In this document: in pieces, positions 3,630 through 63,662 of the stretch | Layout of the letters: each line of letters begins with the position of its first letter | Position numbering within the stretch: position 1 is the stretch's first letter | Assembly (NCBI GenBank): GCA_000806115.1 | Contig: JWKQ01000001.1 | Coordinates: forward strand, 368,915-432,914 | DNA: 64,000 nucleotides | Source: an archaeon GW2011_AR5 | GTDB taxonomy: Archaea; Aenigmatarchaeota; Aenigmatarchaeia; GW2011-AR5 | Direction: 5' to 3' | Program-made: the position numbers and the translations under genes | The notes under the pieces: generated by a model | Databases searched by the model: none | What the model saw: the letters and a program-made list of their open reading frames with translations, nothing else | Told to the model about the DNA's origin: nothing

Positions 3630-5057
3630 ATGACGGAACAAAAGACTGAACAAAACCAGCAGCTTCATGACATACGCTCGAACTATGACGAACAGTTCGG
3701 GTTCAATGTAGACACGCCTACAATCAGGCAGACAAAGAAAGGGCTTTCACCCGAGATAGTAAGAGAGATTTCTGAGCTGAAGGGCGAGCCTCAGTGGATG
3801 CTGGACTTCAGGCTGAAGGCGCTTGAAACTTTCATGAGAAAGCCCATGCCAAAATGGGGGCCTGACCTCAGCATAATTAATTTTGACAATATCACATACT
3901 ACCTTTCTGCATCAAAAAACAAGGCAAAGAGCTGGGACGACGTTCCGGAGGGAATCAAGAACACCTTCGACAGGCTCGGGATTCCCGAAGCCGAGAAGAA
4001 ATTCCTCGCAGGTGTGGAGGCGCAGTTCGATTCTGAAGTTGTTTACAGCAAAGTCAGGGAAGACCTGGAGAAACTGGGCGTCATATTCTGCTCGACAGAC
4101 CAGGCGCTGAAGGAGCATCCGGAACTGTTCAGGGAATTCTTCGGCACCGTCATACCGTCGGAGGACAACAAGTTTTCCGCTTTGAACAGCGCATTCTGGT
4201 CAGGCGGCTCTTTCGTTTATGTGCCGAAAGGCGTGGATGTTCCAATACCTTTGCAGGCGTACTTCAGGATAAACACAAAGGAACTCGGGCAGTTCGAGAG
4301 AACACTGATAATTGCAGACGAAGGCAGCAAGGTGCATTATATCGAGGGCTGTACCGCACCGAGCTATTCCACTGACAGTCTGCATGCGGCGGTTGTCGAA
4401 GTCATCGCAATGCCCGGCGCCCACGTGAGGTACACGACGCTGCAGAACTGGTCAAACAACGTCTACAACCTTGTCACGAAGCGCGCTTTTGCCCACAAGA
4501 ACGCCATAGTCGAATGGCTCGACGCCAACATAGGCAGCAAGATCACGATGAAGTTCCCGAGCGTCTACCTGCTCGGCGAGAATGCGAAAGCGGACATGAT
4601 GTCAATAGCTTTTGCCGGAAAAGGACAGCTGCAGGACACCGGTGCCAAGGCAGTTCACCTAGCGCCGAACACGACATCGAGCATAATAAGCAAGTCAATA
4701 AGCAAGGACGGCGGACGCACAACCTACAGGGGGCTTGTGCGCGTCAACAAAGGGTGCACGGGCGTGAAATCAAACGTGCGCTGCGACGCGCTCCTAATGG
4801 ACGACAAGTCGACGTCCGATACGGTGCCGTACATAGAGATTGACGAGAAAAAAGTGTCCATAGGGCACGAAGCATCCGTGGGAAAAATCGGCGAGGAACA
4901 GCTTTTCTATCTTATGTCGCGGGGACTTAGCGAGCAGGAGGCGACGGGACTGATAGTCCGCGGCTTCTTCGACTGCTTCACGAAACAGCTCCCGCTTGAG
5001 TATGCCGTTGAATTCAACCGACTCATCGAGATGGAGATGGAAGGAAGCGTCGGGTGA
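3630..5057 (+). CDS. sufB: Fe-S cluster assembly protein SufB
   Basis: 475 aa with a typical SufB C-terminus ([26 protein letters not shown]). Confidence 0.95.
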
Positions 5058-11011: not shown

Positions 11012-11222
11012 TTTCTCAATGACTCATGAAATGTTCCTAATATCTCTGGACTAAAGCCCAGAGTATCATGGGAACATGGCATCCAGAATGCATACAGAAA
11101 ACAAAGTTTTCTGTAGCATCAGTTAGCTTCGCTAACTGCTTGCATTGAGTTTTATCTGCAACCTAAAGGTTGCAGTATTCAATGCATTCTTAGATAAATT
11201 TACATGTTAAGTCATTGAAATC
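11012..11222 (+). repeat. family-1 multi-hairpin intergenic element, copy A
   Basis: Outer stem tcaatgact (11016) / agtcattga (11210). P1 atgttcc/ggaacat. P2 atccagaatgca...tgcattcttagat. Inner hairpins at 11044-11063 and 11156-11175 carry TAAA loops. Two extra hairpins are inserted at 11089-11140. No ORF. Confidence 0.8.
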
Positions 11223-19117: not shown

Positions 19118-22027
19118 TCAACCTTTCACGTTGCCGACAGGAACGAATTTGCAGACTTTGCTGGATATACCTGCCTTGTGCACGGCGTCTATCACTTCGT
19201 CTATGTCCTTGTAGGCGCTTCCCGCTTCCTCTGCGAGCCCCGCGAAGCTTGTTGTGCGCACGTATATTCCGCGCTTCTCCATGTCGCGCTGAAGGCTGTC
19301 TCCCCTGTAAAGCTGCCTCGCCCTCGTGCGCGACATCGTCCTTCCCGAGCCGTGAGCGGTGCTGCCGAAGGTTTCCTTCATACCCTTTTCCGTTCCCACC
19401 AGCAAATATGAGCCTGTCTCCATCGAGCCGCCTATGATTACCGGCTGCCCTATGTCACGATATATTTTTGGCACTTCCTCGCGCCCGGGACCGAATGCAC
19501 GCGTTGCGCCTTTCCTGTGAACCAGCACCTGCTGCCTTTTCCCGTTGACATCATGCTCCTCAAGCTTCGCCGTGTTGTGTGCCACGTCATAGACGCAGTT
19601 CATCTCCATCGACTCTGCCGACTGCCCCATCACCTTTGAGAAGCACTCCCGTATCCTGTGTAATATAACCTGGCGGTTGGCAAAACTCATGTTGATGCCG
19701 CATTTCATCGCCGTGAAGTAATCCTGGCCCTCTTTGCTCTGGAAAGGCGCGCATGCAAGCTCGCGGTCCAGTATCTTTATTCCGTACTTGGATTCCATAA
19801 CTTCGAGGAAGACGTTGAGATAATCCGTGGCAACCTGGTGCCCGAAGCCGCGGCTCCCGCAGTGGAACATAACCACTACCTGGTTGGGAAAGATTCCCAT
19901 CCGTTTTGCGATTTCCTTATCGACTATGTTCTCAGGCTTCACCACCTGTATCTCAAGATAGTGGTTGCCGCTGCCGAGCGTCCCAATCTGGTCCATGCCG
20001 CGCTCGATTGCCTTTGAGCTGACTTTTGATGCGTCACCTTCCATCTTACCGTTCTCTTCTATCCGCTCGAGGTCCTCTTCCCAGCCGTAACCTTGCTTCA
20101 CAGCCCATTCCGCGCCGCCCACGATAGCCTCGCGGAAGGTATTCTTGTTAAGCTTGACAAACCCCTTGCTGCCCACACCGGCGGGGACGCGCTCGAACAA
20201 CAAATCCACAAGCTGCTTCAGCTTCGGCTTGACGTCCTTGTAGGTAAGATTGGTTGTCAGAAGGCGCATTCCGCAGTTATGAGAAACTATGCAATTCGCT
20301 ATGAAATTATGATGGCGGCTAGGCATTGTGAAATCATAGACATATCCGTCATATTCGATATTTTTAATTTCCGAAACCTCATCTTTGATAAACTCGGAAT
20401 TTGGAATCTCAACCGTTCTACAAAATTCTTGGAATGTGGGGAAACTCCCTGAAATTCTCACGCCTTTATAGGTCTTATATTTTCTTGCTCTTACTCTGCT
20501 CTTCATGTCTGAAATTTCAATTTCATTGCACTCGATCATCTTCTCCAGATTTTTCAGATATTCACGCTTGAAATTCAGATAAGAAAGCGCAAGCATGGAA
20601 AGCCTTCTCCGTTCTGCGCAATATTCATAGCCAATGTTACCCCATAATCTACTCAAATTTTCAGGCTTTGCTGATAATCTGAGTGCAAGCTTGTGGGTTG
20701 GCTCTCCGAATGTATTAATTGCAATCCTTTGCCTGTATATTTTATTGGCAACAACCCCAAATTCCAGAAGGAGATTTGTTATTTCCAGAATGAAGTTCAT
20801 ATTATCCTTTTCAAGACTGTCTATCTTGTTCTGGCTAAAACTAGGCTCAGTGAAGCTCGTCAATTCGCTCTTCCTCTGACATGGCTTATTAAGCTCTGCA
20901 CCAAAGAGCCCGGCAAGATAAAGCCTTTTTATCCACTTTGGAGCTTTTCCAATCCATTTCGGAACAGATGTTTTTGTCCGAGATTTATTGCCTTTTGGAA
21001 CACCAAGAGCATGGAGCAAAACACTCAATGCCTGGGAATTAATATGGTATTGCGTGCTTTTTCCTATTATTTCCTGTTTAGAGCCGGATCCAGTTGTGAT
21101 CGTGCTTGAATAATCCAATGTCCTGATATGTGTTGCCTTGAATCCAAGCTCGAAAATGTCCTCTTTAATTTCTTCAAGATCTTCCTGTTTTCCTATAATT
21201 CTAGTAGACCAAATATCCATGCTTCTTTTTTTGGAAAAGTATGATCCTACCCATCCATCGCCTGTTATGAAACCAACAAGCTTTGCCAATATAGGTAATT
21301 TTGCAGAATTGTATCTCAATGGCAGGAGAGATTTTTCTTTAAGCTCTTTCACTATATTTTCCCTATTGCCTACAATGGATCGAATAGCATTTTCATCTAA
21401 GATTATATCACTAGACGGCTCCTCATATTCTATCCCATTAAATGGATGAATAATGATTTTTTGACCCTCTCTCATTTCGCTTGCTTCTATGAACTCGCTG
21501 CCCGTATACAGAGGATGATCAGAAGAAAGGATGATTTCATGACCGGTTTTTGTAGTTATTTTCAGGACTGGCTTGTCTGATTCCTTTGCCAAAAATATTA
21601 CAGGCTTGTCATGCAGTTTATTGCTATTTTCAGTATCAATATAGCTAACTGTATCTGTGCATTTCTCCATTTCTTTTATTTTTCTGAAATATCCAAAGCG
21701 TGTAAGTATTCTTGTCTCCGGATGCAAGCAGTTGATGTCGAATCCTATTCCGCCGGGAGAAATGACGCCTTTCTCGACGTCCATCGCCGCGACGCCGCCT
21801 ATCGGAAATCCGTACCCGGAGTGCCCGTCAGACATGCAATAAGCATAATTGATGATACCCGGCAGCGTGGCTACATTGGTTATCTGGTCATAAACCTGCA
21901 TGTCCATCTGGGCGACTATTCCCTCGGTGCCTATAATCTTCGCAGGCACGTGCATGCCCGGCTTGTAAGTCTTCGGGATAACCCATTCAGTTTCGCTGAC
22001 TTTCTGCAAAAAGTTTGGTACTGCCAA
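19118..22027 (-). CDS. rtcB: RNA-splicing ligase RtcB, interrupted by an intein
   Basis: Exteins carry the RtcB motifs (GGIGFDIN | CGMRLL, GSGNHY, HCGSRGFGH, HGSGR). 969 aa, against about 480 for an intein-free RtcB. Confidence 0.95.
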   Translation of the reverse strand: MAVPNFLQKVSETEWVIPKTYKPGMHVPAKIIGTEGIVAQMDMQVYDQITNVATLPGIINYAYCMSDGHSGYGFPIGGVAAMDVEKGVISPGGIGFDINCLHPETRILTRFGYFRKIKEMEKCTDTVSYIDTENSNKLHDKPVIFLAKESDKPVLKITTKTGHEIILSSDHPLYTGSEFIEASEMREGQKIIIHPFNGIEYEEPSSDIILDENAIRSIVGNRENIVKELKEKSLLPLRYNSAKLPILAKLVGFITGDGWVGSYFSKKRSMDIWSTRIIGKQEDLEEIKEDIFELGFKATHIRTLDYSSTITTGSGSKQEIIGKSTQYHINSQALSVLLHALGVPKGNKSRTKTSVPKWIGKAPKWIKRLYLAGLFGAELNKPCQRKSELTSFTEPSFSQNKIDSLEKDNMNFILEITNLLLEFGVVANKIYRQRIAINTFGEPTHKLALRLSAKPENLSRLWGNIGYEYCAERRRLSMLALSYLNFKREYLKNLEKMIECNEIEISDMKSRVRARKYKTYKGVRISGSFPTFQEFCRTVEIPNSEFIKDEVSEIKNIEYDGYVYDFTMPSRHHNFIANCIVSHNCGMRLLTTNLTYKDVKPKLKQLVDLLFERVPAGVGSKGFVKLNKNTFREAIVGGAEWAVKQGYGWEEDLERIEENGKMEGDASKVSSKAIERGMDQIGTLGSGNHYLEIQVVKPENIVDKEIAKRMGIFPNQVVVMFHCGSRGFGHQVATDYLNVFLEVMESKYGIKILDRELACAPFQSKEGQDYFTAMKCGINMSFANRQVILHRIRECFSKVMGQSAESMEMNCVYDVAHNTAKLEEHDVNGKRQQVLVHRKGATRAFGPGREEVPKIYRDIGQPVIIGGSMETGSYLLVGTEKGMKETFGSTAHGSGRTMSRTRARQLYRGDSLQRDMEKRGIYVRTTSFAGLAEEAGSAYKDIDEVIDAVHKAGISSKVCKFVPVGNVKG
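20276..21730 (-). mobile_element. intein (485 aa) with LAGLIDADG homing-endonuclease domain
   Basis: Starts with Cys100 (CLHPETRIL) right after FDIN. Ends ...IVSHN, followed by the +1 Cys of CGMRLL. LAGLIDADG-type motifs LVGFITGDGW and YLAGLFGAEL. Confidence 0.85.
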
Positions 22028-26694: not shown

Positions 26695-26758
26695 AAGCGG
26701 TTTTCCGATTTTTTTAATTTAACAATTTACCTATTTTTTAAAAACAATCAGAAATCAG

Positions 26759-26976
26759 ATCTTCCTAATATCCCACGACTTTAGTTGTGGATTTGCAAGG
26801 ATGACTCAAAGAGTCATCCTGCACGGAAGGAACTTCGTTCCTTCCTGTGTTGGAAGATAGGATTCAGATTCATTGTGTTTCACAAGGACTTCGAAGAAAT
26901 CCTGTGCAGGAAAAGCAAAGCTTTTCCTCGCATCACGCGACTAAAGTCGCGTGTTTTCAATGAATCTAGAATAATC
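26759..26976 (+). repeat. family-1 multi-hairpin intergenic element, copy C
   Basis: P1 atcttcc (26759) / ggaagat (26852) encloses TAATA and three hairpins. P2 attcagattcattg (26862) / caatgaatctagaat (26958) encloses three hairpins, including 26934-26953 with a TAAA loop. Track ORF 26785..26982 lies wholly inside and is rejected. Confidence 0.8.
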
Positions 26977-27006
26977 AAATAAGAAAAAAAGAAAATAACA
27001 ATTTTC

Positions 27007-28454: not shown

Positions 28455-28550
28455 TGCCGAGGAAGGAAAATGGCTGGCGAGCTTTGCTCGCATTCGGCTG
28501 CTTCCTAAGGCTTTACCATCCTTAGGTCGCTACGCCCCTTTTATAGCGAA

Positions 28551-28697
28551 CCAAGTTATGAAATGCTCCTAATAACCCGCACCTAAAGGTGCGGGTTTCA
28601 TGGGAGCATAGCATCCAGAATGCATTGAGTTTCATCTGCCGCATAAATGCGGCAGTTTTCAATGCATTCTCGGATAATATCCAGATTCTTTACTTGG
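28551..28697 (+). repeat. family-1 multi-hairpin intergenic element, copy B (minimal form)
   Basis: Outer stem ccaagt (28551) / acttgg (28692). P1 atgctcc (28563) / ggagcat (28603) around TAATA and hairpin 28575-28596. P2 atccagaatgcattga (28613) / tcaatgcattctcggat (28659) around hairpin 28636-28655. Confidence 0.8.
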
Positions 28698-28716
28698 TCA
28701 GCTATATTCAACTCTT

Positions 28717-35403: not shown

Positions 35404-35478
35404 TGTTTCATGTAAAACCCTCTATTTTAACATTTGCTTAGCTGTGTTATTGGGGATCACATTGTTATCTTGATATCA

Positions 35479-35621
35479 CATCTTCTTTGTTAGAAGATGG
35501 GACCCCGAATGCGCCTCTAATACATGATGAAGCTTCGCTTCACCTGTACAGAAAGAACTTCGTTCTTTCATGTGCATGCCGTCTAAAGACGGCAGTTTCA
35601 GGCACATTCAAGATAATTATC
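35479..35621 (+). repeat. family-1 multi-hairpin intergenic element, copy D
   Basis: P1 catcttc/gaagatg with loop tttgtta. P2 cgaatgcgcc (35506) / ggcacattc (35601) encloses TCTAATA and three hairpins (TTC, TTC and TAAA loops). Near-identical to copy E. Track ORF 35487..35681 lies inside and is rejected. Confidence 0.8.
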
Positions 35622-35662
35622 AGGGTCAAAATGTGCCACTTTAAAGTTATAAAAGTTTTTCG

Positions 35663-36793
35663 ATGTCAATTATTCTCATGAAAAAGCGAAATGTATGCAT
35701 CGGCACAACAGCCTTAATGGCAATGAGCCTTTTCTCACCAATTGTCGAGGCGCAAAACAGAGCACCTCAGGGACGTGCAGTACCTAGAGCAGGAAACGCG
35801 GCTGTACCGAGGACTGCACCGCCTGCTCAGCACGCAGTTCCAAGAAGCGGCTGGGAACGGTTTGCCGTTGATGCAGGTTCAAGGGAATTCCAGCTGCACG
35901 TACGCTACGAGCGCGGCATGCCTTATTTCAATAACACATGGGGATTTTTCTATTATTCCGGTCCTACAAGATTCTGGGTTCCAAACTGGTGCTTTCCGGG
36001 CATAAGCTATGGAGAGGCTGTATCCAGGCAGTTCGTAAACGTATCAAGGCGTGGATATCCGGTCGGCGCAGGAAAAATGCGCGTGCCGGGCGGGAGTTAT
36101 GTTTACAATGCATGGGGGCAGATGGTTCCGGCAGAGCCTGCAATACATGCGGGAGACCAGAGTCCGGTAAACAACAGCGGAACTGTCATTTACAACAATC
36201 TTGAGGAAACAGCGCGACTTAGCGGCGAGAACGAAACACTCAGGAGGGAAAACGCAGAACTGAGGGAAAAGGAAGCAGAACGCAGAGGGTACGAACTTGG
36301 ACTTGCTGAGTCGCAGCGTGGGGCGACAACACAGCAACCTCCTGTGACGCAACAGGCGCCGCCACAGGCAGCCGAACCGGTATCGCAACCAAAAAATACT
36401 GAGCAGAGAATTACCGTCAGTCAAAGGTACGGCGGAAAGATAGACAAAGGACAATATGATGATGAAGGAATTACCACACTGAACGGAATGTTTGATGCAA
36501 TGCGAATGCTTACGGACGGGCGGATCAACCTTTATCCTTTTGACATAGGCGGCGAACGGCTCGAAATAAGAGACGGAAACGACAAGTTTTCAAGGCGCGG
36601 TGTCATAGACATGTCAAGATATGCGAACTGCATGGAACCTTCATCACTCCAGAACCTTTTGTTCTCCGACTTGACAAGGGCGGTCGATATGAGCAACTAT
36701 CCCGGCATTGTAACAAGAGCAAGGGCGGCGCTTGATTTTCAAGTTGCAAGAGACAGCAACGGCAATGTATATACCGCCTCAACCTGCAGGTAA
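35663..36793 (+). CDS. secreted protein (376 aa) with central coiled-coil/Q-P-rich linker
   Basis: Signal-peptide-like MKKRNVCIGTTALMAMSLFSPIVEA. No catalytic motif recognised. Confidence 0.55.
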   Translation: MSIILMKKRNVCIGTTALMAMSLFSPIVEAQNRAPQGRAVPRAGNAAVPRTAPPAQHAVPRSGWERFAVDAGSREFQLHVRYERGMPYFNNTWGFFYYSGPTRFWVPNWCFPGISYGEAVSRQFVNVSRRGYPVGAGKMRVPGGSYVYNAWGQMVPAEPAIHAGDQSPVNNSGTVIYNNLEETARLSGENETLRRENAELREKEAERRGYELGLAESQRGATTQQPPVTQQAPPQAAEPVSQPKNTEQRITVSQRYGGKIDKGQYDDEGITTLNGMFDAMRMLTDGRINLYPFDIGGERLEIRDGNDKFSRRGVIDMSRYANCMEPSSLQNLLFSDLTRAVDMSNYPGIVTRARAALDFQVARDSNGNVYTASTCR

Positions 36794-36828
36794 TTATCAG
36801 AAATACGAATTGCTCGAGGATTTCATGT

Positions 36829-45216: not shown

Positions 45217-45279
45217 AGATATGTATTTGGAGCGGCACTATTAATTTTTATACGTGCGCATCATTGTAAAATTTCATCA

Positions 45280-45453
45280 CATCTTCTTTGTATACCCACG
45301 ACTTTAGTCGTGGGTTTGTTAGAAGATGGGATCCCGAATGCGCCTCTAATTAAACATGATGAAGCTTCGCTTCACCTGTACAGAAAGAACTTCGTTCTTT
45401 CATGTACATGCCGTCTAAAGACGGCAGTTTCAGGCACATTCAAGATGAGAATC
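45280..45453 (+). repeat. family-1 multi-hairpin intergenic element, copy E
   Basis: Same as copy D apart from two substitutions, a 3-nt indel and a 28-nt hairpin insertion (45292-45319) in the P1 loop. Confidence 0.8.
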
Positions 45454-59214: not shown

Positions 59215-59417
59215 GGCATATCAGCTTTTGATGCCGCTTGGTTTTTGCGGCACATTCTTTTCTTTTTCACAACATGCAACTGTCAATGACCACCGCATTT
59301 ATGCGGTGGCTTGCTGAAATTGGCAAATCATTGAGCAATTCGCATTCATTGCTTTTGAATAATTTCTTGAAGGCAATGGAATGCGAAGTTTTAAGGTTGT
59401 CATGACAAATCTATTTT

Positions 59418-60746
59418 ATGAAATTGCTTCTTGCGGCATTCGCCCTGTTGCTGCTGCTCGGGCTTGCCGGCGCAATGACAACCCAGTGCAGCCAGTTCAC
59501 GTCCGAAACAGGCTGCGAGAACTCGGGATGCTCATGGTGCGACAGGTGCGTCGGAAAGGAAATCAATCCCTACGGCTGGGACAGGTGCGTGGAGAGCAGC
59601 CTCAGCTGTACATACAACTGCTCGCGCACATGCGGAGCCAACTGCACTGCAGACAACGACTGTTCAGTCAACCTGACAGACACGACATGCTTCTACGCCG
59701 GCACGTGCGGAGCGTGCAGCTGCAATTACCGGAATGCCACATGCCCGCAGAACGGCACCATTATCGAACAGTACGGAGATCAGGTATGCTACTTCGGGGC
59801 GCGCTACTGCACGTCGGGGGGCTGCTCTATCAATAGCTGTGTCCTACGGACAAACACAATCTGCGACCCGGTTGATGGCTGCGTTTCCTGCCAGGATGAC
59901 TGCAAACAGAATGACGCTTCAGCGTCGTACAGCTCCGACGAGTACATAATCGATAAAAAATGTCAGGACGGCGACGTATTCGGCAGGCAGGTAACCTATG
60001 ACTGCACATACAACGGCCAATGCAATGTGACGAGGACAGATGTGCTTGTCGAAAAGTGCAAGGCGGACTGTTCCGAGACATTCGTCAACGGAATCAATCG
60101 CCCCAAATGCAACGACGAGCTATGCAATATAGACGGTTTAAAGGTGGATTGCAACCGCTACGACGGCTTCTACGGGGACAGCTACTGCGCGGGCAACGAC
60201 ATATACCAGGGATACAGGGATTACAAGTGCGGCAACAACGAGTGCGCCTACGATAACATGCCCACAAAGAAGGGTTCCTGCAACAAAAGCGGCACGACGC
60301 CTTCGGCGTCAGTCAGTTTGTGCCAGAACGGGAGGTGCCATGATTCAGGAACCGTAATAATTGTGAATAGAAGCGAAAGCCCCGGCGGGCAAGAGCCGGC
60401 GCCGCCTTCGGCAAACGTCCTGACAAACATGACTGTGGCGGGCGGGCGGGTATACAGCGGGGTTCTTTTTGGACAAAATGACATAACAGTGCCGGCAAAC
60501 GGGAGAAGCGGGAAGATAAGCTTCAGAATTACGAGGACTAACGGGCTGGGAACGCTTACAATAAATCAAGAAACGACCAACACTTTGCGTCATACATATA
60601 GCCAAACCGTATTCAGCACCAGAAGCGCCGGGAGCTACGAGGTTTCCTTCAACGGCAGCCTCAGGATGCAGACGACAGGTTCAGGCTGGCTGTTCTTTAT
60701 GCCCGCTGTCTACGACGTTGGCACGATTCTGGTACTGTACGATTAA
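59418..60746 (+). CDS. secreted cysteine-rich protein (442 aa)
   Basis: Signal peptide MKLLLAAFALLLLLGLAGA. More than 40 Cys in the N-terminal 300 aa, with a beta-rich C-terminal domain. Confidence 0.65.
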   Translation: MKLLLAAFALLLLLGLAGAMTTQCSQFTSETGCENSGCSWCDRCVGKEINPYGWDRCVESSLSCTYNCSRTCGANCTADNDCSVNLTDTTCFYAGTCGACSCNYRNATCPQNGTIIEQYGDQVCYFGARYCTSGGCSINSCVLRTNTICDPVDGCVSCQDDCKQNDASASYSSDEYIIDKKCQDGDVFGRQVTYDCTYNGQCNVTRTDVLVEKCKADCSETFVNGINRPKCNDELCNIDGLKVDCNRYDGFYGDSYCAGNDIYQGYRDYKCGNNECAYDNMPTKKGSCNKSGTTPSASVSLCQNGRCHDSGTVIIVNRSESPGGQEPAPPSANVLTNMTVAGGRVYSGVLFGQNDITVPANGRSGKISFRITRTNGLGTLTINQETTNTLRHTYSQTVFSTRSAGSYEVSFNGSLRMQTTGSGWLFFMPAVYDVGTILVLYD

Positions 60747-60752
60747 CCTATC

Positions 60753-60763
60753 TTTTTATTTAT
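60753..60763 (+). promoter_or_regulatory. TATA-box-like element upstream of tRNA-Trp
   Basis: TTTTTATTTAT is centred about 30 nt upstream of the tRNA 5' end. Confidence 0.35.
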
Positions 60764-60788
60764 GCCAAGTTACTTTATTCAGAAAACA

Positions 60789-60885
60789 GGGGTCATAGTA
60801 TAAAGAGCTCCAGTAAAGCTCGTAAAACCTGGTAGAACGTCAGTCTCCAAAACTGATTATGGGGGTTCGAATCCCTCTGACCCCA
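60789..60885 (+). tRNA. tRNA-Trp (anticodon CCA) with a 23-nt insertion in the D-arm
   Basis: Acceptor ggggtca/tgacccc + A. Anticodon arm tcagt-ctCCAaa-actga (CCA at 60847-60849). T-arm ggggg-ttcgaat-ccctc. 97 nt in total. Removing 60805-60827 leaves a 74-nt cloverleaf. Confidence 0.7.
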
Positions 60886-60893
60886 TCAGGATT
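60870..60893 (+). repeat. direct repeat copy 1 (tRNA-Trp 3' end + trailer)
   Basis: AATCCCTCTGACCCCATcaGGATT. 17/17 identical, then 22/24 overall, to 61016-61039. Confidence 0.85.
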
Positions 60894-61015
60894 GCTTCGA
60901 TTAAGTTTTGCTTAATCGAGCCGCCAGTTGAACTACGTTCAACTGAGCGCGAACCTTGGGTTCGTCTGCGAATGAACTTTGTTCATTCGAGAGCTCAGTG
61001 TCAAGAAACTGCAGC
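60894..61015 (+). repeat. tandem-hairpin cassette between the tRNA-Trp 3'-end duplicates
   Basis: Four consecutive hairpins: tcgattaag/cttaatcga, cagttgaac/gttcaactg, cgaacc/ggttcg and cgaatgaac/gttcattcg. No ORF. Confidence 0.7.
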
Positions 61016-61039
61016 AATCCCTCTGACCCCATTGGGATT
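61016..61039 (+). repeat. direct repeat copy 2 (duplicate of tRNA-Trp 3' end)
   Basis: AATCCCTCTGACCCCATtgGGATT. Confidence 0.85.
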
Positions 61040-61045
61040 TTATGT

Positions 61046-61594
61046 TCAGAAAAAGTTCTGGGTTATGTGTGCAAAATCCCCGGCAAATGTCACGCCGATG
61101 CCTTCCCTCTGGTAATGCCTTCTCAGGATATTTTCCCTGTGCCCCGGACTGTTCATCCAGCCCCCGACTGTCTTGGCTGCCAGCTCCTGCTGGGTGTACC
61201 AGCTGTATTCCCTTCTCCTGCCTGTAACCTGCCTAATGCCGCCGGGATACTCTATGAAGCTCGTAACCTCCCTGCAAGACTCGTGAAGCGGTATTTTAGC
61301 GATATTTTCGCCTATTCCTTCATAAATTGCGCTTCCTACAGTCTTTCTGACCGGATACCCTGCAATCCTTGCCCTGTCTACCGGCATCCTGCCCTCGGGC
61401 GTGCCGTGACTGAAGTATCCCCTGAATGTCATGTCGCTGCTGTGGTAGCGGGCTACGCCGGACAAAGCGGGGTCTAATCCGAGCTCGGGAAGCGCATATG
61501 TACGCCTTTGGGCGTTTATCATCTCATGGATGGAACGCTCCAAAGACACGGGAATTATGAGAGGTTTGGCGTCCTGGGGCATAGAAATCATCAT
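61046..61594 (-). CDS. CAP/SCP (YkwD-like) domain protein
   Basis: HSSDM...YFSH, GENIA and WMNSPGHRENIL motifs of the CAP superfamily. Confidence 0.75.
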   Translation of the reverse strand: MMISMPQDAKPLIIPVSLERSIHEMINAQRRTYALPELGLDPALSGVARYHSSDMTFRGYFSHGTPEGRMPVDRARIAGYPVRKTVGSAIYEGIGENIAKIPLHESCREVTSFIEYPGGIRQVTGRRREYSWYTQQELAAKTVGGWMNSPGHRENILRRHYQREGIGVTFAGDFAHITQNFF

Positions 61595-61704
61595 AAATTG
61601 TTATTACTATCCAGTGATTGCCTTCCAAAACATACTTAAAGCTATGCTTCGGACGTAATGCTTATATACTACCGGAAAACTAAGGTTGGTTAGGGTGTAA
61701 CAAA

Positions 61705-62082
61705 ATGAAAAGTTCAAAAGCGGGAGAATGGGCATATCTAGTGTCCGTTGTCATCGCAGTATTGGCAGGTATTGCCGCTGCTGCGGGCTTCGGAGCATCC
61801 AGCTGGGTAGCTGTGTTGCTTGTAATACTAGGTGCTGTTGTCGGTCTCCTGAACATTTCCGAGAAAGAAACTACGGCTTTCTTGGTTGCCACAGTAGCTT
61901 TGGTAGTTGCCAGCTTGGGCGCTAACGTATCGGGCACTGCAGGCACATTCAGCGTGCTGAATGTCGTTCCTGGCCTCGGTACATTGATTAACGCCATAGT
62001 TGCCAACATAGCGATATTCGCCGCTCCGGCTGCGATAATCGTCGCTGTCAAGGCTATTATGAACTTGGCAGGCAAGAAGTAA
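61705..62082 (+). CDS. membrane protein (125 aa, 4 TM, Ala/Gly/Val-rich)
   Basis: Track ORF, followed by hairpin cccgc-ttag-gcggg (62093-62106). Confidence 0.55.
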   Translation: MKSSKAGEWAYLVSVVIAVLAGIAAAAGFGASSWVAVLLVILGAVVGLLNISEKETTAFLVATVALVVASLGANVSGTAGTFSVLNVVPGLGTLINAIVANIAIFAAPAAIIVAVKAIMNLAGKK

Positions 62083-62209
62083 GCTCTTCAGTCCCGCTTA
62101 GGCGGGCGGAAGCGGTTTACGGAATGCTGATGTCAGACCGATAATTTAGTCCTATTTCTTTTTTCTTTCTCTATCATTTTCACTTCTCTGTTGTTTTGTA
62201 GGTTAATTA

Positions 62210-62300
62210 CATCTTCTTGTGTAAGAAGATGGAATCCAGAACTCATCCCTTCATCCCATGGCTAAAGCCATGGGTTTTCAGATGAATTCTTAGATAATTC
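62210..62300 (+). repeat. family-1 multi-hairpin intergenic element, copy F (short form)
   Basis: P1 catcttct/agaagatg. P2 atccagaactcatc (62234) / gatgaattcttagat (62281) around hairpin 62255-62274 (TAAA loop). Tail ATAATT. Confidence 0.75.
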
Positions 62301-62486
62301 CAAAATTTTGGGAAATTATAGTATCGGACAATCCTATTTGGGAATATTATTGGTTGTCCGTACTACAAGGTTGAGCGCAGCTCAACCTGTACAGGTGAGA
62401 CGAAGTTTCACCTTGTATATGTGAAGACATAATCATAATATCACTCTAAATTGTTATGTCTTGCACTATATTCCAATTCCGGAATT

Positions 62487-63662
62487 CTATTTGTAGAATA
62501 AGCGCGTGGCTACGGTTGTATAGAGCACAGTACCCAGTATGACTATGAACACAAGGTCGGAAAATATCGCCGCATCCGGTATGCCGTAAGCCACAGGGAG
62601 CTGGGCGAGCACCGCAGCTGCCAGTCCGCGCGGCACCATGGTGCGCATCATGTTCTTCTCCGAGCCTGTTAGGTGCATCTTGTACATGGTTATCTGGGCT
62701 GCCACAAGGCGCGCCAGTATAAGGGCGCCGCAAATCGCAAGCCCGTATATCAGGTAGGTCGTGTTGACGCTGACGATTATGCCCAGATAGACGAAGAAAA
62801 ACGCCCGGATAAAGAAGGACACCTCGTTCTGGAAGGTGCGAAGCAGCTTGGAGAAGCCGAATCGCCTCTTCATGCGGAGCATCGTGGAGAAAGCGCCGCC
62901 GTTGCCAAGCACCAAGCCGAAGGCGAGGGCTGCTATGGCTCCGCTTCCCGAGGCTGATTCCACGAAAACATAAAGCAGGAAAAGCACCGCCAAGGTGAGC
63001 ATATAGTCGAACGGCCTGCCCTTGAGCTTGTCAAGCACGAAAAGCCATATCAGTCCCGCGATCAGTCCGATGACTGCGCCGATGGAGAAAGCGGAAAGAA
63101 CGCCCTGAACCGGCGAGATTTGCGCGGCGCTGTGAGAGATGAGGTTGAGCATCACGATGGCACCGACAATCACAAGCGGGTCGGTGAGTATGGATTCTAG
63201 GGTGACTATCATCTTGGGGCTTTCGCGCATGTGCAGCCTCTTGACTATCGTTATGGCTATCTCGGACGAGGTGCTGCCGACTATGATTCCCAGCAATACA
63301 GAGTAGAGGAGGCTCAGCCCTATGAAATAATACGACACGGCGGCAACCGCAGTCACGGAAATCGCTATTCCGACAACGGCAAGCGCGATGCTCCGGGGGA
63401 AGGAGCGCAGCATCTTGTAGAAATCCATGTTTATGCCGGCGTCGAACAATATAATGAGCAAAGCCAGCGCGGCGAGAAAGGGGGATATGGACACGAAAAG
63501 CGCCCGGTCGACGAGGTTGAACACGGGCCCTATAAGCAGCCCGAATATTATTAGCCAGAAAACATCGGGTATCCGGGTTTTGTCAAAGAACAGGTAGCCG
63601 ACGTAGCCGACTATTATGGTGATGCCGAACAAAGCCAGAATGCTAAAAGAGTCCAGAACCAT
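62487..63662 (-). CDS. cation:proton antiporter (Na+/H+ exchanger family)
   Basis: 391 aa, 11-12 TM segments, with a typical FDAGI...motif region (LFDAGINMDF). Confidence 0.8.
   Translation of the reverse strand: MVLDSFSILALFGITIIVGYVGYLFFDKTRIPDVFWLIIFGLLIGPVFNLVDRALFVSISPFLAALALLIILFDAGINMDFYKMLRSFPRSIALAVVGIAISVTAVAAVSYYFIGLSLLYSVLLGIIVGSTSSEIAITIVKRLHMRESPKMIVTLESILTDPLVIVGAIVMLNLISHSAAQISPVQGVLSAFSIGAVIGLIAGLIWLFVLDKLKGRPFDYMLTLAVLFLLYVFVESASGSGAIAALAFGLVLGNGGAFSTMLRMKRRFGFSKLLRTFQNEVSFFIRAFFFVYLGIIVSVNTTYLIYGLAICGALILARLVAAQITMYKMHLTGSEKNMMRTMVPRGLAAAVLAQLPVAYGIPDAAIFSDLVFIVILGTVLYTTVATRLFYK

Follow-up and report, generated by a model that had tools for sequence, protein, structure and literature searches.

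Results

Family-1 elements in the window

This study concerns family-1, a family of short hairpin elements in a stretch of 64,000 nucleotides (the window) from contig JWKQ01000001.1 of the archaeon GW2011_AR5, and in particular its copies D and E, which differ by one hairpin. The window is archaeal DNA and encodes RtcB with an intein, Rad50, Mre11 and HerA. The closest genomes are metagenome-assembled genomes (MAGs) of Candidatus Aenigmatarchaeota from the Rifle aquifer, with Rad50 78% identical to that of RIFCSPLOWO2_01_FULL_48_10, and the proteins of the window also occur in groundwater metagenomes. Comparison loci from metagenomes and MAGs carry L-numbers, and the term sister species refers to an organism whose PurD is 85% identical to that of the window.

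A hairpin scan and a repeat search revealed six related elements (copies A to F), each on the + strand and each within one of the largest intergenic gaps. A covariance model built from 10 family-1 copies recovered 6/6 of them on the + strand, together with 21 more copies in metagenome and MAG loci. Family-1 elements measure 67-220 nt, which is too short for a transposase, and they consist of a hairpin domain P1, a GGATCC-like linker and a hairpin domain P2. The outer stem of P1 is ATCTTCT/AGAAGAT or, in the A/B subfamily, ATGYTCC/GGRRCAT. Both domains normally hold one GC-rich inner hairpin with a TAAA loop, and the number of inner hairpins in the window varies from none (D, F) or one (A, B, E) to three (C) in P1 and from one (B, F) to three (A, C, D, E) in P2. 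The GGATCC-like motif is followed by CC(A/C)GAA, and the conserved 3' end is (A/G)GAT(A/G/C)A, which takes the form TTCTTAGATAA or TTCAAGAT(A/G)A in the window. P1 begins 1 nt from the 5' boundary and P2 stops approximately 4-7 nt before the 3' boundary. Terminal inverted repeats are absent, the 5' end CATCTTCT being unlike the reverse complement of the 3' end, TTATCTAAGAA. When compared with shuffled sequences, the window copies gave folding z-scores of -7.3 to -10.6.

Copy E (45280..45448, + strand; ATCA at 45276-45279) runs from CATCTTCT to CAAGATGA, has a GGGATCC linker and three inner hairpins in P2, and matched the covariance model with 81.7 bits (E 1e-13). Its P1 inner hairpin (P1i, 45294..45315, +) is ACCCACGAC-TTTA-GTCGTGGGT, where the loop is a flipped TAAA. 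The TTTGT on its 5' side (45287..45291, +) belongs to the conserved flank T(G/A)TATA of the P1 loop, and the TTTGT on its 3' side (45315..45319, +) is the conserved P1 loop flank TTTGT(G/T). Copy D (35479..35616, + strand; ATCA at 35475-35478) belongs to the sub-lineage of E and has no inner hairpin in P1.

The hairpin difference between copies D and E

By direct reading, E is catcttc-TTTGT(45287-45291)-ata-CCCACGAC-ttta-GTCGTGGG-TTTGT(45315-45319)-tagaagatg, and D is catcttc-TTTGT(35486-35490)-tagaagatg with one TTTGT only. Global alignment of D (35475-35617) with E (45276-45449) gave 139 matches, 4 mismatches, one 28-nt gap and one 3-nt gap (aligned identity 139/143, 97%), and the outer flanks were unrelated. 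A sequence-only reading of the window had already described the hairpin, its TTTGT bracket and the single TTTGT of D in this way; its account of the near-identity and of the two gaps also holds, except that the substitutions number four and not two. It had further pointed to a near-identical hairpin in copy C, and the 20-mer CCCACGACTTTAGTCGTGGG was indeed found again with 2 mismatches at 26772-26791, where 0 occurrences were expected (100 shuffles). From these features it had proposed that a 22-nt hairpin was inserted into E with a duplication of TTTGT and was reused in C at a different position and in an unrelated context.

The family comparison leads to the opposite polarity. The P1-loop hairpin stands at the identical position in 21/28 copies (C counted), including the divergent A/B subfamily with its ATGYTCC stem. 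Scanning metagenomes with the pattern ATCTTCT-N{5,35}-AGAAGATGGRAYCCMGAA gave 17 loci, 13 of which have the hairpin at E's position. In the metagenome loci, P1 has the general form atcAC-ATCTTCT-T(G/A)TATA, a stem of 8-9 bp with a TAAA or TTTA loop, and TTTG(T/C)G-AGAAGATGGGATCC. The inner stems covary among copies (CCACCGAC, CCCACGGC, CCTGCGGT, TCACGGAC, CCACCGGT, CCCGCACC, CCCACACC and CTCTGG..), and the sequence bracketing them is conserved as cTT-T(G/A)TATA on the 5' side and TTTGT (TTTGT[G/T]) on the 3' side. The pair TTTGT...TTTGT occurs in 7 copies at unrelated loci (E, L016, L021, L023, L026, L027 and L028), also in other organisms, where it encloses different covarying stems. Considering that a true duplication would vary by site, this pair is not a target-site duplication; it is the family consensus, constant across unrelated flanks.

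The relatives of E and C point in the same direction. On the one hand, the nearest relative of E in its P1 flanks and P2 is L016, in which the hairpin is the same apart from one compensatory pair and the loop is already TTTA. On the other hand, the hairpin of copy C (26758..26974, + strand; ATCA at 26754-26757; 36.2 bits) is homologous in position to that of E. The P1 of C, GATCTTCC/GGAAGAT, holds three hairpins, and its P2 stem AGATTCATTG/CAATGAATCT encloses another three. The canonical P1 inner hairpin (26772-26790, CCCACGAC-TTTA-GTTGTGG) is the first of the three in P1 and starts 6 nt past the P1 5' arm (GATCTTCC-taatat-CCCACGAC, compared with CATCTTCT-ttgtata-CCCACGAC in E), which is also the position in 19 other family members. 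L031 567-685 is a simple C-type copy with the sequence ATCTTCC-ttatat-CCCACGAC-TAAA-GTCGTGGG-tttgtt-GGAAGAT. Among the 73 loci searched, the hairpin 18-mer was confined to the orthologues of E and C and to this L031 copy, always in this position. Accordingly, based on the shared position, the conserved flanks, the relatives L016 and L031 and the confinement of the 18-mer, we concluded that the hairpin was inherited and that the state of D is derived.

D is thus in all likelihood a deletion derivative of an E-like copy. It would have lost one TTTGT repeat and the 23 nt between the repeats (28 nt in total) through a deletion between the repeats at the hairpin foot, probably by slipped-strand or repeat-mediated deletion across the hairpin. 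A hairpin with a short direct repeat on each side of its foot is a classic substrate of slippage deletion. Repeat-mediated core deletions have been described in archaeal palindrome-associated transposable elements (PATEs; PMC3119063). This case indicates that conserved loop flanks can mimic a target-site duplication, and that what looks like an insertion can be the ordinary repeat-mediated deletion of a standard hairpin.

Inversions of the P1 loop

Of the P1 inner loops, 12 read TAAA and 5 read TTTA. Identical stems carry opposite P1 loops in L026/L028 versus L027, in L023 versus L016 and in L031 versus C, indicating at least 4 independent flips. The P2 inner loop is TAAA or TGAA wherever the inner hairpin could be aligned and was never flipped. 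A second element family, family-2, shows a comparable exchange of TTC and GAA, with the loop ACGAAGT in the window versus ACTTCGT in the sister-species locus L071. These flips are the signature of stem-templated inversion at the DNA level, and the restriction of orientation to the P2 inner loop suggests a strand-specific constraint there. Hairpin-loop inversions and template-switch mutations are known from chloroplast non-coding DNA and from replication template switching. As in those cases, the flip between TAAA and TTTA on an identical stem is the expected product of stem-templated inversion; the difference is that here only the P1 inner hairpin is affected and never that of P2.

Presence, absence and empty sites

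Copy F (62210..62297, + strand; ATTA at 62206-62209; 72.5 bits) is minimal, with no inner hairpin in P1 and one in P2. It is absent from L055 and L057, loci of a sister strain with 99.6% identity to window 60661-62209 and 95.6% to 62470-62652. With slashes at the junctions, the empty site reads ggttaATTA / TTCCAAAATTTTGGAAAAT / cattcc, and the filled site of the window reads ggttaATTA / F / TTCCAAAATTTTGGGAAATT / the 152-nt second element / attcc; the right side of the empty junction and the sequence after F both start with TTCCAAAATTTTGG. Copy A (11030..11197, + strand; AATGTTCC ... TTCTTAGATAA) follows an ATGA target at 11026-11029 and lies inside the loop of a host hairpin, TCAATGACT/AGTCATTGA. 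The corresponding site of the sister species is empty and reads aatgactcATAA / ATTTACATGTTA in L071, compared with ATGA / A / ATTTACATGTTA in the window. Both the F and the A sites have precise junctions without target duplication, defined with an ambiguity of 1-2 nt.

No family-1 match was found in the 73 kb of sister-species contigs that span the sites of A, B, C and D. The sites of B, C and D are occupied there by an open reading frame (ORF) of 131 aa, a PIN/UPF0175 cassette and 20 unalignable nt, so that they show absence and no clean junctions. Two more distant relatives also have no D at the syntenic site, and L058 diverges from the window exactly after AGATAA. In relatives whose Rad50 is 62-78% identical, family members are few and none occupies a syntenic site. 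Family-1 copies are present in three Aenigmatarchaeota MAG loci (L010, L011 and L012), and L026, L027 and L028 carry near-identical 119-nt copies with differing flanks. Searching viral contigs for the P1-linker 18-mer yielded a single match, which lay in a coding sequence and is attributed to chance. Based on these results, we consider it very probable that family-1 is mobile DNA: it is an undescribed, recently active, hairpin-ended and non-autonomous element of Aenigmatarchaeota.

Some further differences were seen at these sites. The C site (window 26697-26981) corresponds to a PIN-domain/UPF0175 toxin-antitoxin pair in the sister species (L067 6331-7284) between the same conserved flanks. 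The sister species also has a methyltransferase and a HinfI-like restriction gene pair beside a 313-aa gene, which the window lacks. In strain L063, four clustered substitutions relative to the window (11050, 11051, 11057 and 11070) lie in or near the inner hairpin of A (window 11045-11070 region), in a contig that is otherwise 99.8% identical.

Target, strand and proposed mechanism

A tetranucleotide of the ATNA type precedes 27/27 copies (ATCA in 19, ATGA in 3, ATCG in 2, and ATTA, ATGG and ATCT in 1 each). Both empty sites retain it, indicating that it belongs to the target sequence and not to the element. The left and right ATNA are identical in only 1/27 copies; being so rarely equal, they are not a target duplication. 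The third base of the target pairs with the base before AT in the linker, the combinations being ATC/GAT in 21 copies, ATG/CAT in 4 and ATT/AAT in 1 (F), with L010 as the exception. The linker also contains an overlapping ATC, and the GAT of the 3' end is its complement. In terms of strand, all six window copies lie on the + strand over approximately 80 kb (window plus flanking sequence). Elsewhere, with few copies per locus, 3/3 strong matches of L026 and 3/3 of L027 are on one strand and L031 is mixed.

The element inserts or excises precisely, immediately 3' of ATNA, with neither target duplication nor terminal inverted repeats, and it is often found within the loops of other hairpins. From these features we infer single-strand 'peel-and-paste' transposition as in IS200/IS605 and in gene-less derivatives such as PATEs, with the transposase presumably supplied in trans. 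By analogy, we give an IS200/IS605-like mechanism about even odds. When all loci were searched with a regular expression for the IS200 TnpA motif, a single element was detected, at L012 19660-20215. Its tnpA (19775-20180) encodes the motifs FHIVFVPKYRK and NHVHM and has an in-frame stop before the catalytic-tyrosine region. Pairing of the left-end, linker and right-end motifs over about 400 kb of loci returned compact copies only and no split, gene-carrying copy.

More tentatively, family-1 may represent an undescribed family of single-strand transposons of the DPANN archaea, in which the palindromic GGATCC linker would read the right end of the element itself (GAT) as well as the target (ATC). 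Such elements would land in hairpin loops, including those of their own kind and of family-2, and so build nested arrays, and they might be transcribed into structured RNAs used in trans like the guide-RNA scaffolds of PATEs. If this is true, the choice of target is written in the DNA of the element itself.

Structural conservation

Across 27 copies, 97.1% of cells are in standard pairs, and 31/40 pairs have changed on both sides. In the pairing controls, 0/500 shuffles were as good, and slid partners were only 35-48% paired. The stems contain 41 G.T versus 11 A.C, and this excess is expected if one strand folds. Searches of Rfam found nothing at gathering score; the window yielded only a tRNA match, and the best match at the element loci was psRNA14 with 35.7 bits versus a gathering score of 60, besides weak generic-hairpin matches. 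No shared upstream promoter was found, and conservation ends sharply at ATNA. The orientation relative to neighbouring genes is mixed, without a clear rule.

With regard to possible transcription, the 5' loop flank T(T/G)TATA(C) (for example, L018 1029-1036 and window 45287-45294) resembles an archaeal TATA box and is directed towards P2 and the downstream gene. This TATA-like sequence of the P1 loop is lost in D and F. A gene on the same strand lies within approximately 130 nt downstream in 12/19 copies, which is not significant.

A closing stem formed by the flanks (P0) had looked convincing for A, B, D, E and L029. It was ruled out when the real flank pairs of 28 copies gave a mean of -10.7 kcal/mol versus -10.5 kcal/mol for mismatched pairs (p = 0.36). 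The flank pairing at A and B is explained by insertion into the loop of a pre-existing hairpin.

Nesting and the second element family

Family-2 comprises four-hairpin elements of approximately 150 nt with the core GGTTRAGC..GCTYAACC TGTACA GGTGA..TCACC. One of them (62318..62469, + strand, 152 nt, four hairpins) has the core GGTTGAGC-gca-GCTCAACC TGTACA GGTGAgacgaagtTTCACC; it is absent in L055/L057, and its homologue in the sister species lies at L071 9772-9915. Another, at window ~28456-28716, hosts copy B. Family-2 itself varies in presence between strains and species.

Copy B (28562..28677, + strand; AATGCTCC ... TTCTCGGATAA; ATGA target at 28558-28561; 115.5 bits with the covariance model) lies inside a hairpin loop (ACCAAGT/ACTTGGT) as GAACCAAGTT-atga, B, tatccagattcttt-ACTTGGTCAGCTATA. 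Its host hairpin is homologous to hairpin 4 of family-2, which has the form GACCAACTT-gtgtaatatccagaatatt-AAGTTGGTCAGCTATAA in L071. In the case of A, the sister species carries a family-2 element in the same loop of the host hairpin, at a distance of 12 nt. The P2 of E contains an extra two-hairpin block of 52 nt (45359..45410, + strand; 35527-35578 in D) that is bounded by ACATG repeats and missing from the otherwise near-identical P2 of L016, L026, L027 and L028. This block aligns to the family-2 core as ACATG-GTTAAGCttcGCTTAACC-TGTACA-GGTGAAACttcGTTTCACC. Two additional hairpins lie within the TAAA loop of P1i in L053 198-314, and A and L015 share a common two-hairpin block with compensatory changes in different backbones. 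These results indicate that the hairpin content is modular and that the nesting is real, and also that repeats alone do not tell the insertion of blocks from deletion elsewhere. The sequence-only reading had taken individual hairpins as the mobile or recombining unit. The evidence that it cited from E, D and C does not bear this out, and the gain, loss and reuse of hairpin units are supported by the other cases given here.

Other hairpin features were also observed in the window. A lone hairpin at 59290-59309, CCACCGCA-ttta-TGCGGTGG, lies within an outer stem CAATGA/TCATTG (59215-59417); this structure may be a degenerate element on the - strand, and the covariance model gives no match to it. 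At 60789-61032 there is a tRNA-Trp(CCA)-like gene, with an Rfam tRNA match at 60822-60877, in which ARAGORN finds none; an extra hairpin in its D-arm region (~60800-60826) suggests a non-canonical intron. A four-hairpin cluster of 130 nt (60887-61015) with the outer stem GGATTGC/GCAATCC follows, and a 17-nt stretch of the tRNA 3' end, AATCCCTCTGACCCCAT, is directly repeated at the two borders of this cluster (60870-60886 and 61016-61032). In L033 and L037, which come from different samples, the left flank and 5' half of E are joined to the 3' half and right flank of D (window-equivalent 45276-45446 to 35486-36828). The crossover points differ between the two, and the junction is as for a circle or tandem duplication of the 9.8-kb Rad50-Mre11-HerA segment, or for an assembly chimera. 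GC skew tracks the gene strand. The RtcB gene (19118-22027, - strand) carries the intein mentioned above, and the sister-species SufB (L071 674-3247) has an intein with a LAGLIDADG domain, which the window SufB (3630-5057) lacks.

Discussion

Weighing the explanations

As a whole, we assign a probability of roughly 70% to the explanation that family-1 is a mobile element whose P1 hairpin is ancestral and that D is a deletion. Several points weigh against it. Seven copies have no P1 inner hairpin (F, L031b, L010, L012 x2, L024 and D), and the hairpin-less P1 could be the older form for the whole family, which would leave the polarity between D and E unaffected. The junctions at the empty sites are ambiguous by 1-2 nt; a frame of A shifted by 2 nt fits the sister species without mismatch, and F fits only with a shift of 0 or -1. 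No transposase with family-1 ends was found, and none is encoded in the window or in the 8.8 kb and 7.4 kb beyond its ends. The ends of the L012 element start with GAATTCCGC, followed by hairpins with TTCA and TTTA loops, and are unrelated to P1/P2. Also, P1 begins 1 nt after the target tetranucleotide, where the distance in IS608 is 19 nt, and the bases complementary to the target are found 3' and not 5' of P1. Finally, the strong covariation and the conserved TAAA loops would suit an RNA function as well.

This last point leads to the view that the elements are structured small-RNA genes, paralogues under selection for RNA structure, in which the indel is the variation of a dispensable arm. 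The very strong covariation, the fold z-scores of -7 to -10.6, the G.U count far above A.C, the conserved TAAA/TGAA loops and a P2 inner loop that never flips, compared with at least 4 flips in P1, are all in keeping with it, and PATEs are able to encode guide-RNA scaffolds (PMC10055086). However, such genes would not be expected to lack a conserved upstream promoter and to halt their conservation at ATNA, to be absent from orthologous sites of the sister species and the sister strain, or to occur as near-identical copies at differing loci, and they match no Rfam family at gathering score and have a mixed orientation to their neighbours. We therefore consider this view unlikely as the full explanation, although the small-RNA and mobile-element readings are compatible and both may be true.

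The other alternatives concern the hairpin itself. If short-tract gene conversion had moved the hairpin from C into E or its P1 region, or in the opposite direction, hairpins would be recombining and not mobile; E and C do share the stem CCCACGAC and the flipped TTTA while their P2 domains are from different sub-lineages, the two crossover points in L033/L037 may reflect recombination between copies, and the substitutions in P1i of A in strain L063 are clustered. But the flanks in E (TTGTATA / TTTGTT-AGAAGATGG) are of the L016 type and not of the C type (TAATAT / GGAAGAT), common descent is enough for a difference of one compensatory pair from L016, which has TTTA, and the chimeric contigs could be assembly artefacts, so that conversion appears improbable. 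A free 22-nt module that entered the P1 loop of E, duplicating TTTGT, and independently entered C is more doubtful still. It would account for a 28-nt indel edged by a perfect 5-nt direct repeat and for the same stem with a flipped TTTA loop in C and E of one genome; hairpin-less P1 domains do exist (F, L024, L031b, L010, L012), and hairpin blocks do enter loops elsewhere, such as the two in the P1i loop of L053. Yet both the TTTGT pair and the position are common to copies with different stems at unrelated loci, a hairpin occupies this place also in the A/B subfamily with its divergent P1 and P2, the C hairpin is homologous in position with an 18-mer found nowhere else in the loci searched, and the hairpin of E with its flanks equals that of L016 save for one compensatory pair. 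This proposal is already largely refuted. An assembly or sequencing artefact could be imagined from the repeats and from some chimeric contigs (L033, L037, L058), but the chance of it is negligible considering that each state, E with the hairpin (L001-L004) and D without it (L032, L034-L036), was found in four independent assemblies from different samples with the right unique flanks.

Comparison with known systems

The mobile DNA of DPANN archaea is almost undescribed, and family-1 adds two clean empty sites, covariation between target and linker, recurrent loop inversions and nesting. It is a possible strain-level marker for groundwater Aenigmatarchaeota and could lead to a hairpin-recognising transposase or to a guide-RNA system. 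In terms of classification, the terminal inverted repeats and target duplication of classical miniature inverted-repeat transposable elements are both absent here. Pneumococcal BOX elements (boxA-boxB(n)-boxC; PMC3049150) are similarly modular, with a variable number of hairpins between conserved ends and strong folding, but they are bacterial, have other sequences and show no sign of an ATNA target or a single-strand mechanism.

Bacterial repetitive extragenic palindromic (REP) sequences and bacterial interspersed mosaic elements (BIMEs), with their REP-associated tyrosine transposases (RAYTs; PMC3333891, PMC3733652), resemble family-1 as short intergenic hairpins in mosaics with compensatory stem changes, thought to be moved by a Y1 enzyme in trans. 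In contrast, the REPs of one genome are near-identical and bear a GTAG or CGTC tag, whereas family-1 has no such tag, its inner hairpins start with (A)CC.. or CTG.., its stems vary, and its mobile unit is the whole two-domain element.

IS608 recognises a target tetranucleotide through base pairing with the DNA of the element and inserts on the 3' side of it, restores the donor joint without gain or loss, and is top-strand specific (PMC3201880). Family-1 shares with IS608 and ISDra2 (Y1 HUH TnpA; PMC3201880, PMC5027513) the subterminal hairpins at both ends, the tetranucleotide that stays at the empty site, the precision, the complementarity between target and element, and, as far as the window copies suggest, a strand specificity with co-oriented neighbouring copies. 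On the other hand, it has no tnpA/tnpB, its spacing is 1 nt where IS608 is cleaved 19 nt 5' of the left hairpin, its complementary triplet lies 3' of P1 where the IS608 guide lies 5' of the hairpin foot, and its P1 and P2 are dissimilar.

By analogy, family-1 appears closest in kind to the PATEs derived from IS200/IS605. PATEs of haloarchaea (Dyall-Smith et al. 2011, PMC3119063) have no inverted terminal repeats or target duplication, possess near-terminal palindromes, are too short for a transposase and undergo repeat-mediated core deletions. A PATE would also be expected to share its ends with an IS605-type transposon of its own or a related genome, and about 400 kb of loci yielded no such transposon for family-1. 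Family-1 also differs in its host, a DPANN lineage (Aenigmatarchaeota) from groundwater, in the left hairpin that abuts the target tetranucleotide, in the central GGATCC-like linker and in the covarying inner TAAA-loop hairpins. Considering that no cognate transposase was found and that the spacing of target and hairpin is unlike that of IS608, we classify the family as PATE-like and not as a proven member. The likeness is nevertheless broad: both are archaeal, short and devoid of protein-coding capacity, terminal inverted repeats and target duplication, and family-1 has the precise empty sites, the palindromes near both termini and the conserved 5' oligonucleotide, here a tetranucleotide, that characterise PATEs. 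Both also form heterogeneous families with a few near-identical 'homogeneous' copies, internal repeat-mediated deletions and nested small elements.

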